This document shows, piece after piece, positions 15,378 to 36,297 of a stretch of DNA of 64,000 bases (positions within the stretch are counted from its first letter, which is position 1; every line of letters begins with the position of its first letter). This stretch comes from a virus. Lineage: Duplodnaviria; Caudoviricetes. The notes under the pieces are model-generated. The model was given only the letters and a program-made list of their open reading frames with translations. It searched no databases and was not told where the DNA came from. Where the stretch lies: IMG/VR virus record IMGVR_UViG_3300031994_000035, positions 1 to 64,000 of that record. One strand, 5' to 3'. Both the position numbers and the translations under genes were made by a program.

Positions 15378-16610
15378 ATGTTAAAAGGAATCCAAATACG
15401 ATTATACCCAAATGATGAGCAAATGCATTATATTGCTTGTCTTCTTGGATGCTGCCGTAAAACGTACAACATGTGTTTGAATTATAAAAAGACTTCTTAT
15501 GAAAAAGATAAAACAAATATTTCATGGATTGATTTAGGTAAATATCTAACTGAAAAGAAAAATGAATTTGCTTACATGAAAGATGTTCATAGTAAAGTAT
15601 TACAACAATCAATTATTGACCTTAATACCGCATTTAACAACTTTTTCAGAGGAATTTTGAAAGGACAAAACATAGGTTATCCTGAATTTAAATCAAAATC
15701 TAATCATAATGATTCATGTAGATTTCCAAAAGATGCTTTTATCGGAATTAACGGTAATAGAATTTCATTAATCAAACCATTATCAAATATTCATTTTAAA
15801 TGTTCAAGAAGGGACGAATCCTGGCTTAATCACAATCAGGATAAAATAAAATATGTTACTTTAAGAAGAAATAAAGCCAATCAAATATATTGTTCCATAC
15901 TTGTTGATTATCCAATTGAATTGGTTTCTAATAATATAAACGGTGAAGTAGGAATCGATTTAGGTTTAAAAGATTTTTGTATAACATCAGATACTGAAAA
16001 ATATAATTTAGATGATTGTTCTCATCTTGAAAAGAAGTTGAAGAAGCAACAAAGAAAATTCTCAAAAACAGCAAACGGAAGTAAACGTCACGAAAAACAG
16101 CGAATACGAGTTGCTAAAACTTATCAGAAAATATCAAACAAAAGAAAATATAATCATCAAGTAATATCTTCAAAACTTGTGAAAGAAAATTCAGTGATTT
16201 CAATAGAAGATTTAAATGTTTCAGGCATGCTTAAAAACCACAAGCTTGCAAAAAACATACAATCTAAAGGTTGGAGTCAATTTGTTAATATGCTTGAATA
16301 CAAATCAAATTGGTATGGTTCAAATCTTGTAAAAATAAGTAGATGGTTTCCGTCAAGCAAGACCTGCTCTTCTTGCGGTTGGATTTATAAAGATTTAAAT
16401 TTATCTATACGAGAATGGACATGCCCTTGTTGTGGAACACATCATGACAGAGACATCAATGCAGCAATTAACATTTTATCTGAAGGAAAAAGAATAATAG
16501 GCTTGAGTTCAGCCGAATTTACGCACGGGGAGTACCCAACTATGGATGACCGTCACATTGACCTAAAAAGTAGTGGTACGTTGAATCGTGAACAGAATGT
16601 AAAACCATAA
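15378..16610 (+). CDS. tnpB: TnpB RNA-guided endonuclease
   Basis: IRLYP HTH; RuvC motifs GIDLG / IEDL / DRDINAA; Zn finger CSSC..CPCC. Confidence 0.94.
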
Positions 16611-29556: not shown

Positions 29557-30627
29557 ATGAGAAAATTAGTAAGCGTAAGAACAATTGGAAGTACTTATCC
29601 AATTAAAGGTAAAGACAGAGTTGAAATGGCAGTCGTAGATGGTTGGACCTGTATGGTCAGTAAGGCCGATAATTTCAAACCTGGTGACTTATGTATCTTT
29701 TGTGAAACTGATTCTGTTTTTCCACAAACTGAAAAATGGGAATTTTTGAAAAAATACAATTACCGTATTAAGACACAGCGTTTCAAAGACGCCGATGGCA
29801 ATTACATTTATTCACAGGGTCTGGTACTTCCAATGACAGATTTTCCAAATGCAAAACTTGGTGATGACTTGACAAAAGAAATGAATGTCATACAATACGA
29901 AGCAACAATGGATATTGAATCAAAACCTAAAAAATTCAAAAATCCTTTGATGAGATTTGCTTGGTTTAGAAAACTGTTCGGTAATGTACAAACTAAAGAA
30001 TCATTTCCTGATGAGATAAGTAAAACAGATGAAGAACGTATCCAAAACTGTCCTGAAAGACCTTCACTTGCAGAAAAATGGATAATGACAGAAAAAGTTG
30101 ATGGACAGTCAGGAACTTATTTACTTCGAAAACATAAATGGTTGTTCGGTACAAAATATGAATTTGTTGTTTGTTCCCGTAATTTTAAAACAAATGACAA
30201 AAATACCTCATATTGGAAGTGTGCTGAAAAATACAACATTGAAAAGGCTTTGAAAAACCTTATCGGTAATCATAAATGGATTTGTCTGCAGGGTGAGTGT
30301 CTTGGTCCCGGTATTCAAGGTAACAAATATAAACTGCCTTGCTATACGTTAAGAGCTTTCAACTTAATTACTCCTGAAGGACGTATGGACAGTGTAACTG
30401 CTGAAACACTTGTAAAATCACAAGGTATTTTTTGGGTTCCAATGCTTGGTGAAATTTCAGGTGAACAACTAATGAAATTAGGAGTTGACGGTATATTAAA
30501 AGCAGCAAACGGACTTTCTAAATTAAATTCAGATACTAAGCGTGAAGGAATTGTATTTAGAAGCAGTGACGGTAAAAAATCATTCAAAGCCGTAAGCCCT
30601 GAATTTTTAATCAAATTTGATGAATAA
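29557..30627 (+). CDS. RNA ligase (Rnl2/DRB0094-like)
   Basis: Motif I TEKVDG, SRN, QGE, REGIV, FKAVS; N-terminal OB-like domain. Confidence 0.9.
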   Translation: MRKLVSVRTIGSTYPIKGKDRVEMAVVDGWTCMVSKADNFKPGDLCIFCETDSVFPQTEKWEFLKKYNYRIKTQRFKDADGNYIYSQGLVLPMTDFPNAKLGDDLTKEMNVIQYEATMDIESKPKKFKNPLMRFAWFRKLFGNVQTKESFPDEISKTDEERIQNCPERPSLAEKWIMTEKVDGQSGTYLLRKHKWLFGTKYEFVVCSRNFKTNDKNTSYWKCAEKYNIEKALKNLIGNHKWICLQGECLGPGIQGNKYKLPCYTLRAFNLITPEGRMDSVTAETLVKSQGIFWVPMLGEISGEQLMKLGVDGILKAANGLSKLNSDTKREGIVFRSSDGKKSFKAVSPEFLIKFDE

Positions 30628-31646: not shown

Positions 31647-31651
31647 AATTT

Positions 31652-31685
31652 TTGATCCAACTTTAAAATTTTTACATTATTTTTA
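31652..31685 (+). promoter_or_regulatory. early-type promoter copy upstream of the RNA island
   Basis: TTGATC-N17-CATTAT. Confidence 0.65.
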
Positions 31686-31851
31686 CGTCATCAAACAATT
31701 TTTATAAATTCTGTTGTTTATTATATACAAACAAGCTTATAAAGTACATTGAAATATTAAGGAACTACAAGTTAACATCATACCAAAGATGTTGAGTGGA
31801 ATCGGAAACAGGTGGTGCTGTCGGTAACAGAAAAAGTAATTCCTTTTTAAA

Positions 31852-31965
31852 ATTGCGTTATGTAGGAATGGCTGACCAACATTCCACAAATTGCTGGGCG
31901 TGGAAGTGTGTGAATAATCCAGAAGAACAACACACAATGATTGGTACGAATTCCTCTGACGCAAT
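31852..31965 (+). ncRNA. unidentified structured RNA
   Basis: Closing stems ATTGCGTTA/TGACGCAAT and AGGAAT/ATTCCT; GC above background. Confidence 0.5.
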
Positions 31966-31976
31966 AAATTTAATCT

Positions 31977-32050
31977 GGGCCGGGTAGTGTAATTGGCTAG
32001 CACGTCACATTTGCACTGTGACAGAGGGGTTCAAGTCCCACCTGTGTCCA
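31977..32050 (+). tRNA. tRNA-Ala(TGC)
   Basis: Anticodon arm TCACA-TT TGC AC-TGTGA; G3:U70; imperfect acceptor stem. Confidence 0.75.
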
Positions 32051-32081
32051 CTAAAAAAGAGTACATTGAAATAGTTATAAT

Positions 32082-32262
32082 TTAAAGATTCTGAGGTGGA
32101 GCAGGTTTTTCCTCTAAAGCATTCGAGGATAGAGGGTTGGAAGTAATAACTGCGTGGACGTGTCCTTTACGCTCGACTTACTCGCGTGAAACTAAGAGTA
32201 TGGGGACCAAAGGTCGGCTACAACAGGGCGAATACTGTCGAGGGCTGTATAGGAATCTTTAA
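32082..32262 (+). ncRNA. unidentified structured RNA (~180 nt)
   Basis: 10-bp closing stem TTAAAGATTC/GAATCTTTAA plus internal hairpins. Confidence 0.55.
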
Positions 32263-32268
32263 TTTTTG

Positions 32269-32612
32269 GGGGGTGTATGGTTTTGACTGCAGATTAGTGG
32301 TATGAGATACATGTGGTGATTGAACGGCTCACCTAAAACAACGGTCGAAAAATAAAGGTAAAAAACACTTTCAGCAAAGTAAGCAACAAGGTTGTAGACT
32401 TCGCAAACAGAGTAGTAGACATCAGAATTGCTCCAGTAGTAATGAGAATGGCTGCTTAATAGCCTTTAAGATTTCCGTGTTAGATTAAATACGGTGGTGG
32501 AGCTGCGAGAGCAGAGGTTTTGGAACAGAACCTTAATCTGTTATCCTAAACATGTAAATAATATCTTGTATTGACGGTTTGTAGGACCGGAGTTCGAATC
32601 TCCGCACCTCCA
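32269..32612 (+). ncRNA. ssrA: tmRNA
   Basis: 5' GGGGGTG-TATGGTTTTGAC; 3' T-arm CGGAG-TTCGAAT-CTCCG and CACCTCC-A with G3:U70; tag ORF ends ...MRMAA-TAA-TAG. Confidence 0.93.
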
Positions 32613-32618
32613 CGATTA

Positions 32619-32694
32619 ACGCTTGTCGTCTAATGGTTAAGACATAGGGTCTAAAATAAAACCTTAGATTCGGGTTCGAGTCCCGACTTGACAT
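32619..32694 (+). pseudogene. tRNA-like element with 12-nt anticodon loop and unpaired acceptor stem
   Basis: D arm GTCTAATGGTTAAGAC and T arm TCGGG-TTCGAGT-CCCGA are intact. Confidence 0.65.
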
Positions 32695-32778
32695 CATTGC
32701 ACCTAACATATATGTCAAAGCGTTGTCATCATACTTATCACTTGCGGCATGCGTGAGGATTCCGTGTGCCGCCCTCCT

Positions 32779-32847
32779 GCCACGGTCGTCTAATGGTTAG
32801 GATCTGAATGCGCAATCAAGAACCAGGTTCGATTCCTGGCTGTAGTA
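32779..32847 (+). pseudogene. tRNA-Glu-like element with shortened anticodon arm
   Basis: D and T arms intact; 14-nt anticodon arm. Confidence 0.6.
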
Positions 32848-32852
32848 CTAAT

Positions 32853-32986
32853 GTCCATGTTGATGGACTTTCTATTGCATAAGTGTACATAGTTCAATAG
32901 AAAGGTGCTGGTAAGCTTTATCATCTGTTTTTGTCAATATTCATGATACATTGACAAATAATGAGGTTCGATTCCTTACGTGGACT
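32853..32986 (+). ncRNA. expanded tRNA-like RNA (134 nt)
   Basis: Acceptor GTCCATG/CGTGGAC, T arm TGAGG-TTCGATT-CCTTA, two long internal hairpins. Confidence 0.65.
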
Positions 32987-32990
32987 CAAA

Positions 32991-33066
32991 GACTTATATA
33001 GGCAAATAGGCGAAGTCGTCAGGAAGAAATTCCTGAAGGTACTGGTTCGAAACCGGTTATAAGTCC
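32991..33066 (+). ncRNA. tRNA-like RNA with a GAAA tetraloop in place of the anticodon loop
   Basis: Acceptor GACTTAT/ATAAGTC; TCAGGAA-GAAA-TTCCTGA; T arm intact. Confidence 0.7.
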
Positions 33067-33072
33067 AATAGT

Positions 33073-33185
33073 AATGAACTGAGTCAGAAAAGTAAAGCGC
33101 TTAATATGTCGACTAAAAGCGTGAGTAACGAAGTAGGACCAAGGACGTGAGTAGCTACGCAGGTAAGCATCTTCAGGCGTCCATT
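33073..33185 (+). ncRNA. unidentified structured RNA
   Basis: Closing stems AATGAAC/GTCCATT and CTGAG/TTCAG; two CGTGAGTA hairpins. Confidence 0.4.
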
Positions 33186-33187
33186 CT

Positions 33188-33259
33188 GCCCCGGTCGTCT
33201 AATGGTTAGGACGTGAGGTTTTCATCCTCAAAATTCGGGTTCGATTCCCGGCTGGGGTA
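33188..33259 (+). tRNA. tRNA-Glu(TTC)
   Basis: TGAGG-TT TTC AT-CCTCA; full cloverleaf. Confidence 0.92.
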
Positions 33260-33276
33260 CAAAATGATTTATTTTA

Positions 33277-33288
33277 GTTCTTTGACAT
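33277..33288 (+). promoter_or_regulatory. boxA-like antitermination site
   Basis: GTTCTTTGACAT; variants GTACATTGAAAT at 31744 and 32061. Confidence 0.5.
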
Positions 33289-33302
33289 ATTGGAAATATT
33301 TT

Positions 33303-33384
33303 GGACCTGTGGTGGAATTGGTAGGCACGCCAGACTTAGGATCTGGTGCAGAAATGCGTGAGAGTTCAAGTCTCTCCTGGTCCA
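33303..33384 (+). tRNA. tRNA-Leu(TAG)
   Basis: CCAGA-CT TAG GA-TCTGG; long variable arm. Confidence 0.9.
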
Positions 33385-33394
33385 CAAAGAAAAA

Positions 33395-33510
33395 TCGCAG
33401 GTGCAGTTCGAGTCTGCATGGTTGTGAAACGGTGCACCATATCACATATTCAGGTGTACAACTAATATGTGTATGAAGTAGCAACCATAGGTGTATGGGT
33501 AGCATGGCGA
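33395..33510 (+). ncRNA. circularly permuted tRNA-like RNA (YrlA-like topology)
   Basis: Order is T arm, 3' acceptor strand, insert, 5' acceptor strand, D arm; ends pair TCGC/GCGA. Confidence 0.6.
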
Positions 33511-33516
33511 AAATTT

Positions 33517-33634
33517 AAGTGGTGATAGACGATCAATAAGATGACATGAGAACGGTTGATGCGGTTAGGCTACAAATTACCGGTAGTATCTGGTCTCATT
33601 GGAAGGTGACGAATCGGTATTCCTTCTGCCACTT
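33517..33634 (+). ncRNA. unidentified structured RNA
   Basis: Closing stem AAGTGGT/GCCACTT; inner stems ATGAGA/TCTCAT and GGAAGG/CCTTCT. Confidence 0.5.
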
Positions 33635-33636
33635 TT

Positions 33637-33711
33637 GGGCCTTTAGCTCAATTTGGTTAGAGCTTCCGTCTGATACGCGGAAGGTTCTTGGTTCAAGTCC
33701 AGGGAGGCCCA
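33637..33711 (+). tRNA. tRNA-Ile(GAT)
   Basis: TCCGT-CT GAT AC-GCGGA. Confidence 0.9.
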
Positions 33712-33818
33712 CAAATGATTTCCAAGTTAGATTAAACTTGGTGGTGCAGGAAGCATCAGCCAACACAGGTGATGTAAAAAAATATGTGGATGCGCCTACT
33801 GCTAAGTGAGGATTTTTA

Positions 33819-33894
33819 GGGCCTGTAGCTCAGTATAGGTTAGAGCAACTGACTCATAATCAGGAGGTCACTGGTTCAAGCCCAGTCTGGCCCA
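33819..33894 (+). tRNA. tRNA-CAT, probably Ile2 (lysidine type)
   Basis: CT CAT AA loop; GGGCCTG acceptor typical of Ile tRNAs. Confidence 0.85.
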
Positions 33895-34160
33895 CAATAC
33901 CAAATTGCGTTGTGGTTATAAACAAACGCTGGCATAGACGAAACTTGCCAATGTAACTATGTAGGTAGCTTCTGGAACGAGTGGTGATCGTAAACAGAGA
34001 CAAGTTCATCATAAACTCGTAGTGAATAGTACAAAAGTTAGACGTAGGTGCGGAACGATTCTTTTCAGAAAATGCTAAGATTGAAAGACTTACCAGGTCA
34101 GTTGTTCTCTTTTAACCGCCCAGAACAAATAAAATGAAGAACATACGATGTTAGCTTTAT

Positions 34161-34241
34161 AGCGGAGTGTCAGTAGATGGTAGCTGGAAAGTCTCATAAA
34201 CTTTTGCGAAAGCCTCGGAGGTTCGAGTCCTCCCTCCGCAA
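34161..34241 (+). tRNA. tRNA-Met(CAT), atypical
   Basis: AAAGT-CT CAT AA-ACTTT; A1xA72 mismatch; extra GC-GAAA-GC variable hairpin. Confidence 0.8.
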
Positions 34242-34353
34242 CTACGAAACACGCTTGGTACCCTGCGTCCGGGGCTGGACGAGCCAAGTAATGAACAGGT
34301 AAGTCTCCACCTGAAGTAATTAGTGAGGTGATAAATGAGTAAAGGGAGGCGAT

Positions 34354-34469
34354 GGACTTGTCGTCTAATGGATAAGACACGGGGAATAGTCAAGACACGT
34401 GGTCTAATAAAGACACGAGGTCTAGTCTAAACTATAACCTTGGATTCAGGTTCGAGTCCTGCAAGTCCA
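34354..34469 (+). pseudogene. tRNA-like element with internal duplications and expanded anticodon loop
   Basis: Acceptor GGACTTG/CAAGTCC; AAGACACG three times; paralog of the 32619 element. Confidence 0.65.
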
Positions 34470-34532
34470 CAAAAGTAATGGAGATCTTGAAGGATGGTAC
34501 TCCACGTTAAATACTAAAAGACCTCCTATCAA

Positions 34533-34617
34533 GGCCGAATGGTGGAATGGTAGACACGTGAGACTTAAAATCTCAGGAACAGAAATGTTCGTGCAAGTTC
34601 GATTCTTGTTTTGGCCA
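34533..34617 (+). tRNA. tRNA-Leu(TAA)
   Basis: TGAGA-CT TAA AA-TCTCA; long variable arm. Confidence 0.9.
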
Positions 34618-34742
34618 CGTGAAATGGTGTAGTGTATGCTTTCCACCATTGGTCCTACGGGCAGATGGCTGGGGGTTCCTCATTATGCACCAACCTTTGA
34701 AGAGGTACCACTTCTGAAAGGAGGACAAAAGGAACCAAATTT

Positions 34743-34829
34743 GGAGAAATAACCCTAACCTGGTAAGGGAACTGTTTGCTAAACAGTCAGTAGCCGAAAG
34801 GTGTGCAGGTTCAAATCCTGCTTTCTCCG
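34743..34829 (+). tRNA. tRNA-Ser(GCT)
   Basis: ACTGT-TT GCT AA-ACAGT; long variable arm; G73. Confidence 0.9.
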
Positions 34830-35054
34830 CAAATTACATCGTTGTAGTTTCTTCTACAACAGAGTACATTACTTATTAAGTCACAATATGTACATTCATC
34901 TTCAAAAATGTGCGAAGGTTTTGATTGTTCATCAATCTAAGTTGCTTCTACAATAGACTGTTAAGAAGATGTGTGAGGGATTCTACAAAAAATCCCCGTT
35001 AAGTTTGGACAGCAGCTGATCAGGTCCTGACAAAGTGAGGTCGAAAAACTTTCT

Positions 35055-35128
35055 GGTGGCATAGCTCAGTTGGATAGAGCAACAGCCTTCTAAGCTGTGG
35101 GTCGGGAGTTCGAACCTCTCTGTCATCA
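35055..35128 (+). tRNA. tRNA-Arg(TCT)
   Basis: ACAGC-CT TCT AA-GCTGT. Confidence 0.92.
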
Positions 35129-35173
35129 CAACATTTTGAAAAAATTTCAAAAAAATGAAAATTTTTTATAGAA

Positions 35174-35207
35174 TTTGATACAACTTTAAAATATTATACT
35201 ATATTTG
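35174..35207 (+). promoter_or_regulatory. promoter of the second tRNA operon
   Basis: TTTG...TATATTTG (Bacteroidota -33/-7 type); variant of the repeated promoter. Confidence 0.72.
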
Positions 35208-35217
35208 CTATACATAA

Positions 35218-35301
35218 ATGAACAAAACGATGTTAGTAGTTTTTACACATAAGACACAAAATAATTACCAACCCAAAGATTGGTCGGATATTTGTATCTA
35301 G
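35218..35301 (+). CDS. putative attenuator leader peptide MNKTMLVVFTHKTQNNYQPKDWSDICI
   Basis: 27-aa ORF between promoter and terminator; its codons match the downstream tRNA set. Confidence 0.75.
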   Translation: MNKTMLVVFTHKTQNNYQPKDWSDICI

Positions 35302-35330
35302 TGTCGGAGTGTATTAAAATATAAAAACCT

Positions 35331-35371
35331 AAAATCCCTCTCCGACAATCTTGGTGAGGGATTTTTATTTT
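35331..35371 (+). terminator. attenuator terminator
   Basis: AAAATCCCTC-T-CCGA[CAATC]TTGG-T-GAGGGATTTT followed by a T-rich tract, ending right before tRNA-Asn. Confidence 0.8.
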
Positions 35372-35445
35372 GGTGACATAGCTCAGTTGGTTAGAGCATC
35401 TGACTGTTAATCAGAGGGTCGAAGGTTCGAAGCCTTCTGTCACCG
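35372..35445 (+). tRNA. tRNA-Asn(GTT)
   Basis: TCTGA-CT GTT AA-TCAGA. Confidence 0.93.
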
Positions 35446-35450
35446 CAAAA

Positions 35451-35526
35451 CTAGGTATAGAGGAGCTAGGTTTATCTCGCCTGTCTTGGACTCAGGAGCA
35501 CGCTGGTTCGAATCCAGCTACCTAGA
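35451..35526 (+). tRNA. tRNA-Pro(TGG)
   Basis: CT TGG AC loop; acceptor CTAGGTA/TACCTAG-A. Confidence 0.85.
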
Positions 35527-35533
35527 CAAATTT

Positions 35534-35621
35534 GGAAGTGTGTTCGAATTGGTAAGGAATCAGTCTTGAAAACTGACGGGTACATAAAATGGCCTTGTGG
35601 GTTCGAGTCCCTCCACTTCCG
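35534..35621 (+). tRNA. tRNA-Ser(TGA)
   Basis: TCAGT-CT TGA AA-ACTGA; long variable arm. Confidence 0.9.
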
Positions 35622-35626
35622 CTGAT

Positions 35627-35699
35627 TGTCCTTTCATACAATGGTTTAGTATACCAGAATTTGGATCTGGTCATCTTGGTTCGAATCCAGGAAGGACAA
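35627..35699 (+). tRNA. tRNA-Gln(TTG)
   Basis: CCAGA-AT TTG GA-TCTGG; T1:A72. Confidence 0.88.
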
Positions 35700-35706
35700 C
35701 AAAATT

Positions 35707-35795
35707 GGGAGAGCGGTTACGATGGTGGAGTAACGCTGGACTGTAAATCCAGTACATTTAAAGAAACGTAGTAGGTTCGAATCCTACCTCTCCCA
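35707..35795 (+). tRNA. tRNA-Tyr(GTA)
   Basis: CTGGA-CT GTA AA-TCCAG; long variable region. Confidence 0.9.
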
Positions 35796-35800
35796 CACAT

Positions 35801-35874
35801 GGTGTTAGTAGTTCAGTTGGTAGAACGCTGGTTTGTGGAGCCAGTAGTCATTGGTTCGAATCCAATCTAACACA
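35801..35874 (+). tRNA. tRNA-His(GTG)
   Basis: CTGGT-TT GTG GA-GCCAG; G-1 present. Confidence 0.88.
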
Positions 35875-35883
35875 CAAAATAAA

Positions 35884-36001
35884 CTAGGTATAGAGAAATT
35901 GGTAAACTCACCCTGTATTGGAACAGGGAACACAAGGAATAGTTACTAGTGGAATACTTGTGGACAGTAATGTCTTGTTGGTTCGAGCCCAGCTACCTAG
36001 A
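35884..36001 (+). tRNA. tRNA-Pro(TGG)-like RNA with giant variable region
   Basis: Same acceptor as 35451; 6-nt ATTGGA loop; ~48-nt two-hairpin variable insert. Confidence 0.6.
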
Positions 36002-36006
36002 CTAAT

Positions 36007-36083
36007 GATTTCGTAGCTAAGTTGGTCTTTAGAGCATGACACTTTTAATGTCGGTGTCGAGAGTTCGAATCCAATCTGACACA
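36007..36083 (+). pseudogene. chimeric tRNA-Lys(TTT) with a His-type 3' end
   Basis: TGACA-CT TTT AA-TGTCG, but the 3' end copies tRNA-His so the T and acceptor stems do not pair. Confidence 0.7.
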
Positions 36084-36088
36084 CAAAT

Positions 36089-36162
36089 GCCTCTTTAGCT
36101 CAATTGGTGAGAGCAGCTGATTTGTAATCAGCAGGTTGTAGGTTCGAGTCCTACAAGAGGCT
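36089..36162 (+). tRNA. tRNA-Thr(TGT)
   Basis: GCTGA-TT TGT AA-TCAGC. Confidence 0.93.
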
Positions 36163-36167
36163 CATAT

Positions 36168-36241
36168 AGTGCTGTAGCTCAGTTGGTTAGAGTAATGGCC
36201 TGTCACGCCATGGGTCGCGGGTTCGAGTCCCGTCAGCACTG
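36168..36241 (+). tRNA. tRNA-Asp(GTC)
   Basis: ATGGC-CT GTC AC-GCCAT. Confidence 0.93.
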
Positions 36242-36297
36242 CACCTTTTATTATATCAGTCGAGAAATCGGCAAAAATCCAAAAATTTTTCAAAATT

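Follow-up and report, generated by a model that had tools for sequence, protein, structure and literature searches.

How can a block of phage tRNA genes be transcribed when an intrinsic terminator stands directly in front of its first gene? Phage tRNA genes are usually viewed as fixed cargo, which matches codon usage or replaces tRNAs cut by host defences, and to our knowledge the control of their expression has barely been studied. The locus that raises the question lies in a stretch of 64,000 nucleotides (nt), positions 1-64,000 of the IMG/VR virus record IMGVR_UViG_3300031994_000035, which is hereafter called the window and whose numbering is used for coordinates. The source record is 123.8 kb long and about 49% complete, with a GC content of 30%, and its genes include those for a T4-type baseplate protein, a DNA polymerase and a helicase; a 255-kb contig carries the same genes, and the phage is found in sequencing runs from sheep and goat gut. 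An RNA island spans positions 31650-36250, with a loose array of RNA genes followed by a leader stretch and then by a tight tRNA block. We propose that the segment 35174-35371 serves the tight block as a regulatory leader and acts by ribosome-mediated attenuation, a reading to which we assign a probability of about 0.45.

The terminator is the element from which the argument starts. A sequence-only reading of the window had placed it at 35331-35371, immediately before tRNA-Asn, and a hairpin with a T-tract is indeed present there on the + strand. In particular, the hairpin at 35331-35365 (-17.4 kcal/mol) consists of a lower stem of 10 bp, an upper helix of 4 bp and a loop of 5 nt; it is followed by TTTTTATTTT, and the terminator ends one base before the tRNA-Asn gene. 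A scan of 124 kb for hairpins with a T-tract returned only six + strand sites, the strongest three being 35331, 89069 and 109307. These three have the common tail TTTTTATTT, and the latter two lie directly after the ends of open reading frames (ORFs). Given the tail common to two gene-end terminators and the strength of the hairpin, 35331-35371 is a terminator of the phage's own type. Since the T-tract ends at 35371 and tRNA-Asn begins at 35372, no room is left for a promoter belonging to the block itself, and transcription of the block must therefore read through the terminator. In other words, the firmest inference that the sequence affords is that the tight block would be made only by read-through of the terminator at 35331-35371.

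According to ARAGORN and Rfam, the tight block comprises, on the + strand, the genes for tRNA-Asn(GTT), Pro(TGG), Ser(TGA), Gln(TTG), Tyr(GTA) and His(GTG) at 35372-35875, separated by 4-6-nt spacers, and those for Thr(TGT) and Asp(GTC) at 36089-36242. The block had been described as encoding tRNAs for exactly nine amino acids, with Lys as the ninth. This count has to be corrected to eight, as the Lys-like stretch is not called as a tRNA even at lowered thresholds. Specifically, the remnant at 36008-36084 on the + strand retains an intact D arm and an intact TTT anticodon arm (loop CTTTTAA), and its T stem and acceptor are disrupted. The last 22 nt of the remnant copy the 3' end of tRNA-His (36063-87 is 96% identical to 35854-78), and by sequence reading this copy appears to leave the T stem and the acceptor stem of the remnant unpaired. 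The supposed tRNA-Lys is a broken chimera, Lys-like in its 5' two-thirds and ending in the 3' end of tRNA-His.

Upstream of the terminator, the promoter had been claimed at 35174-35207 on the + strand, and both boxes are found at these positions: TTTG (35174-77), a spacing of 22 nt, and TAtaTTTG (35200-07). The element is a divergent copy of a repeated motif of the phage, a family of promoter plus 5' untranslated region (UTR) of about 70 nt with the core TTGATCCAACTT ... TATTATATTTAC ... CAACAAATTAA. By motif match the family has nine near-identical canonical copies, all on the + strand and all before ORFs (16878, 36298, 58227 and 62934 in the window; 109369, 115469, 116993, 119007 and 119457 in G000). 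Two divergent copies, again on the + strand, occur at 31652, at the head of the RNA island, and at 35175, the latter differing from the canonical copies in the -7 box and in the downstream region. No leader ORF with a terminator was found downstream of the variant at 31652. The motif is also found in the relatives G001 and L030. The promoters of this rumen phage resemble the Bacteroidota type, and a strict Bacteroidota promoter pattern showed no enrichment in the window. From promoter spacing only, the transcription start is predicted at about 35210-35214. Expression data came from four runs in the form of assembled contigs, which are uninformative on transcript ends and levels: a contig from an RNA library crosses the promoter (35118-35268, depth 2.5) and may be DNA, and no RNA contig is listed over 35269-35371.

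Between promoter and terminator lies the leader ORF of 27 codons (35218-35301, + strand), which is present as previously reported, with its ATG at 35218, a TAG stop at 35299-301 and the peptide as given; a second in-frame ATG occurs at 35230. In the minimum-free-energy fold the start region is unpaired, that is, the start would be accessible. The peptide has 17 of its 27 residues within the set N, P, S, Q, Y, H, K, T, D, twelve of them consecutive: the run T H K T Q N N Y Q P K D (35245-35280, + strand) is made entirely of amino acids from the set of the downstream block. Moreover, all eight intact tRNA specificities, Lys left aside, appear in the 27 codons. According to wobble rules the anticodons of the block read all matching codons except CCC, for which four-way wobble would be needed; CCC, TCG and ACG are rare codons in the phage.

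The rarity of this match was measured against controls drawn from the phage's own genome. Windows of 12 codons lying wholly within the nine-amino-acid set number 8 among 247,608 in six frames. A run of at least 12 is found in 3 of 607 ATG-started ORFs of 20-40 amino acids, the leader being one of the three, and in 0.07% of 27-residue windows from real proteins; when random nine-letter sets are applied to the leader peptide, the frequency is 0.03%. Coverage of all nine amino acids is reached by 0.9-1.7% of controls, and coverage of the eight intact specificities by 1.4-2.2%. The run is 81% A+C, and shuffling its own bases places all 12 codons in the set in 0.8% of cases. The codon match is therefore real at a level of roughly 1e-3 to 1e-2, and base composition alone is insufficient to explain it.

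The leader also contains two segments on the + strand that are complementary to the interior of the terminator. Segment A, or region 2, follows the stop codon directly (35302-35309); its sequence, TGTCGGAG, is the exact reverse complement of 35340-47, giving a perfect 8-bp pairing. Segment B lies inside the ORF (35276-35288) and is complementary to the terminator loop at 35341-52 over 12 bp with one bulged G. Both complementarities had been claimed to engage the 5' arm and the loop of the terminator. They are exact, but their targets are the loop and the upper stem, not the lower arm. As duplexes, A and B reach -14.2 and -17.2 kcal/mol, against -17.4 kcal/mol for the terminator; as intramolecular pairings the values are -10.3 for A, -9.9 for B and -13.7 kcal/mol for a competing hairpin, designated 1:2. 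In the minimum-free-energy fold of the leader this hairpin pairs 35245-48 with 35309-12 and 35253-57 with 35301-05. That is, its region 1 is the 5' part of the 12-codon run (35245-57), and the partner strand is 35301-12. A complementarity to the 5' arm and loop of the terminator like that of B has a frequency of 0.1-0.8% among shuffles and 2% among genome pieces, and two separate sites of this kind have a joint p of about 0.002 (0.2% of genome pieces). The parts of the leader, their positions, their rarity and their energies are thus established.

Stop codon and region 2 are contiguous, as TAG at 35299-301 abuts 35302-09, and in a model of the ribosome footprint a ribosome terminating at TAG would mask region 2. 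When the transcript is cut at 35355, helix A has a probability of 0.26-1.0 for most ribosome positions, and of 0.6 or more at most of them. At P-sites 35254-35260, segment B replaces A in the pairing, and helix A falls to 0 only with the P-site at or beyond 35293, that is, over the last codons and the stop. When folded with and without a ribosome mask, as proposed in the sequence-only reading, the cut transcript loses helix A once the ribosome nears the stop, and the full-length transcript at equilibrium always forms the terminator. Loss of the upper part of the hairpin would leave a stem of -7.5 to -12 kcal/mol, which is weakened and not abolished. As a geometric estimate, helix B (12 bp, 3-nt connector) would be sterically incompatible with the closed stem. 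In magnitude, the energies of the 1:2 hairpin, helix A, terminator and residual stem are trp-like.

These elements suggest the following mechanism, for which we infer translation of the ORF, its coupling to transcription, stalling and regulated read-through. Transcripts, whether started at the promoter of the leader or entering from the array upstream, would meet the terminator before tRNA-Asn. With no ribosome, or with a ribosome at TAG, region 2 would be unavailable, being either masked or paired in the 1:2 hairpin, and the terminator would form in full. A ribosome slowed on the codons at 35245-80 would instead open the 1:2 hairpin, and region 2 or segment B could then pair with the terminator loop and upper helix. 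As a consequence the stability of the hairpin would fall from about -17 kcal/mol to some -7.5 kcal/mol or less, allowing RNA polymerase to enter the tRNA genes, with RNase P presumably cutting at 35371/35372. The net effect would be a feedback of tRNA supply on tRNA synthesis. In its most specific form, which we hold somewhat more tentatively than the general proposal, transcription of the eight tRNAs would be coupled to the speed of the ribosome over a 12-codon sample of just the codons that they read, making the leader a multivalent leader-peptide attenuator on tRNA genes.

Classic leaders such as trpL, hisL, thrL, ilvL and pheL share several predicted features with the locus, namely a promoter-proximal mini-ORF with the sensed codons inside a 1:2 hairpin, a region 2 that can switch partner into the terminator, and an intrinsic terminator about 70 nt past the stop, with region 2 placed where a terminating ribosome would cover it. 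With its predicted 1:2/2:3/3:4 layout and the stop abutting region 2, the locus fits the claimed trp/his-type geometry better than first described. It departs from it in one respect: the antiterminator of trp-type leaders takes the lower 5' arm of the terminator, whereas in the phage it takes the loop and the upper helix. Moreover, trp-type leaders regulate biosynthetic enzymes and not tRNAs, and the codons that they sense, in the multivalent thr and ilv leaders as well, stand in tandem and represent one to three amino acids, whereas the phage leader samples eight or nine in scattered order and has nearly no 5' UTR. T-box riboswitches share with the proposed leader an attenuation by terminator and antiterminator that reads tRNA status. 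Unlike it, they bind a single uncharged tRNA through a specifier codon and the T-box bulge, have no ORF, and control aminoacyl-tRNA synthetase or amino-acid genes. Identity with a T-box or another riboswitch was rejected, as 35130-35371 gave no Rfam match at E values up to 1.

A number of observations weigh against attenuation at this locus. Helix A forms in the cut transcript without any ribosome too, so that the state without translation is ambiguous. In the equilibrium fold of the full-length transcript the terminator has a probability of 1.00 at all 28 ribosome positions; since attenuators act kinetically, this dominance is not taken as a refutation. In addition, C35340 is the one base of the lower 10-bp stem that A and B occupy, the rest of their target being the loop and the upper 4-bp helix; the lower 5' arm (35331-39) stays free, and by geometric estimate helix A (8 bp, 9-nt connector) may coexist with the stem as an H-type pseudoknot. 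The leader without its terminator folds no better than shuffled sequences (z -0.82). The distance from the -7 box to the ATG is 10 nt, which predicts a 5' UTR of only about 5-8 nt, against about 38 nt in the canonical promoter copies; run-in transcription from the upstream array would not be affected. As for the codons, dropping Lys cuts the run from 12 to 7, and Lys, whose tRNA gene in the block is broken, accounts for 3 of the 17 matching codons. For most amino acids the leader has scattered codons, one to three each and mostly single, in place of tandem runs, and the rare codons CCC and TCG are decoded by wobble only. Finally, a near-identical strain from goat gut covers the leader with three differences: 35293 T>C, by which Cys26 becomes Arg; an insertion of 7 nt after 35314, within the linker; and 35365 T>A in the T-tract, with the same hairpin energy. 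None of these alters the start, the stop, the 12 codons, either complementary segment or the hairpin, yet the strain provides no test, as such identity is not significant at a flank divergence of 2-4.5%.

Part of this evidence would also be accommodated if nothing were regulated at all. The leader could be a stand-alone mini-gene, or a small RNA of about 160 nt comparable to the stable RNAs of the T4 tRNA cluster, and the block could be fed by constitutive leakage of the terminator, both from the leader promoter and from the array upstream, the codon match and the complementarities being by-products of an A/C-rich, structured RNA. The terminator does begin 30 nt past the stop of the leader ORF, akin to the other gene-end terminators of the phage, which lie 34-112 nt past their ORFs; its constant formation at equilibrium and the very short 5' UTR agree with such a view, and so do the A+C content of the run and the 0.8% of own-base shuffles that reproduce the match. 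The RNA-library contig described above, should it not be DNA, fits run-in transcription. The same 0.8% is, however, a low frequency, and the match is rarer still among real proteins (0.07%) and uncommon among short ORFs; two independent complements to the terminator interior, one of them abutted by the stop, are left unexplained, and a strong terminator at the 5' end of a tRNA with no promoter behind it would be an odd way to express eight tRNAs. We consider this explanation unlikely, though it is the most serious of the alternatives. If the codon run and the double complementarity were instead pure accident, the ORF would be a spurious frame in an AT-rich spacer, next to a terminator that merely ends the upstream array. 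An open frame of 27 codons is estimated to be about 10% likely in such DNA, and a pattern that is often looked for carries a selection effect, but a member of the promoter family sits between the upstream array and the terminator, and the run and the two complements are jointly rare, which makes chance the least probable account of the locus.

Regulation might also take place with no ribosome involved and with the ORF incidental, the terminator serving as a timing device like that governed by lambda Q, which would switch on the tRNA block at a set time of infection, or as a switch binding RNA or protein. The PR'-tR' unit of lambda makes 6S RNA under the control of Q, and small stable RNAs sit in the tRNA cluster of T4. 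Here too a short promoter-to-terminator unit precedes the genes, or a small RNA lies beside phage tRNAs, and the unit of about 160 nt in the rumen phage resembles the 6S layout. Its promoter is a distinct family variant, set apart from the canonical copies by its -7 box and downstream region, the alternative pairings exist independently of the ORF, and the terminators of this genome are few, so that each may be a control point. On the other hand, the lambda and T4 units have no codon/tRNA correspondence, and such a device would leave unexplained both this correspondence and the placement of the stop against region 2. Neither a Q-like factor or pause signal nor an antiterminator protein or its binding site was identified in the rumen phage, and the Rfam result given above applies to riboswitches of this kind as well. 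Regulation by these means appears improbable, less so than chance.

Attenuation by the translating ribosome gains from a comparison with the Caulobacter phage phiCbK (JX100813, locus L035, 47000-53000), in which the depositors annotated terminators directly before tRNA blocks. The 45-residue gp083 precedes a block for Pro, Pro, Lys, Lys, Leu x3 and Ser x2, and 23 of its 45 residues are P, K, L or S, against a background of 22%; a share of this kind is seen in 0.05% of windows from real proteins. Moreover, an ORF of 32 amino acids, which begins 7 nt past a -10 box and holds QFVRQIQVVRNI, precedes the terminator of a block for Phe, Val, Ile, Ile, Val, Gln and Gln. The order is the same as in the rumen phage, namely promoter, short ORF rich in the amino acids of the block, terminator and tRNA block, with the ORF beginning at or near the 5' end of the transcript. 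Unlike the rumen phage, to which it has no sequence similarity, phiCbK belongs to an unrelated lineage with an unrelated host, has several such units with repeated codons instead of one, and places the terminator 10-130 nt before the first tRNA, whereas in the rumen phage the terminator abuts it. Because the architecture recurs in an unrelated phage, we judge the attenuation reading more likely. The architecture is not universal, since in the crAss-like phage cr116_1 an ORF of 34 amino acids before an Asn-Trp-Phe-Ile-His block has no codon match. The genome paper of phiCbK is silent on mini-ORFs matching tRNA blocks (PMC3556154), and neither there nor in a full-text literature search was a description of attenuation of tRNA genes found; the claim that no multi-tRNA-sensing attenuator on phage tRNAs had been described thus agrees with this search.

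Relatives of the rumen phage itself contribute little to the comparison, and the locus carries less weight as evidence than cases for which conserved relatives exist. No relative carrying the operon was found in phage, IMG/VR, JGI metagenome, GTDB or protein-indexed collections. Specifically, searches of 50,697 phage records with blastn and megablast gave generic tRNA matches only, tblastn with the leader peptide gave nothing relevant, and IMG/VR searches by neighbouring proteins and DNA patterns returned no relative bearing the operon. A pattern search of JGI metagenomes found only an unrelated tRNA-Met, pattern searches of GTDB genomes had no matches, and an exact look-up of 20 spurious ORFs from across the RNA island found 0 of 20 in the protein collection. 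Among the closest relatives of the flanking genes, L030 (81% identity) has ORFs in place of the tRNA block, and L037 keeps the first promoter of the island and tRNA-Ala, where its contig stops. The fragment of G001, which has the promoter family, holds no tRNAs, nor do the 16.6 kb of L004, related through its RNA ligase (75% identity). Distant RNA-ligase relatives with tRNAs (L007 and L016) have no comparable leader.

If the proposal were true, it would represent a new use of the classic attenuation switch, with a direct feedback on tRNA supply. The tRNA output of the phage would rise when the host pool is depleted, for example by anticodon nucleases or by host shut-off, and the notion that phage tRNAs are made on demand would become testable with simple reporters. 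In addition, the architecture would extend to an AT-rich, T4-like phage of the rumen, an independent lineage far from the Caulobacter phages in which the pattern is clearer. A role in counter-defence against anticodon nucleases, with an RNA ligase gene nearby (29557-30627), is plausible but speculative.

Within the tight block, a further tRNA-shaped element of 118 nt, which is not called by ARAGORN or Rfam, lies at 35886-36003 on the + strand. This Pro-like element shares its 7-bp acceptor with the tRNA-Pro at 35451; its anticodon loop has 8 nt (TATTGGAA), and its variable region, about 45 nt long, contains two hairpins. A contig of the goat strain fuses 35853 to 36063 through a shared 15 nt, and both the Pro-like element and the 5' part of the Lys-like remnant are missing there.

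The loose array upstream of the leader (31979-35129, by ARAGORN and Rfam) contains widely spaced tRNAs, a tmRNA and several tRNA-like oddities. The phage-encoded tmRNA (32269-32613; Rfam RF00023, 89.7 bits) has a tag that ARAGORN predicts at 33 residues, which is unusually long. At 34357-34461, the two halves of a Glu-like tRNA are split by three tandem copies of an 18-nt repeat (34374-34432), and the goat strain lacks 36 nt of it, that is, two units. Three tRNA-like elements lie at 32992-33066, 32625-32687 and 32779-32847; in one of them a GAAA tetraloop takes the place of the anticodon loop, and another two match tRNAs weakly (27.7 and 31.7 bits). The RNA ligase gene mentioned above (phrog_968, E 1.6e-52) is located 1.3 kb upstream of the RNA island, and relatives of the ligase at 33-75% identity were located in 13 IMG/VR loci, of which just 3 have tRNAs in the stretch fetched. 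A transposase-like ORF is also found within the phage genome, at 15378-16610 (phrog_506, E 6e-113).

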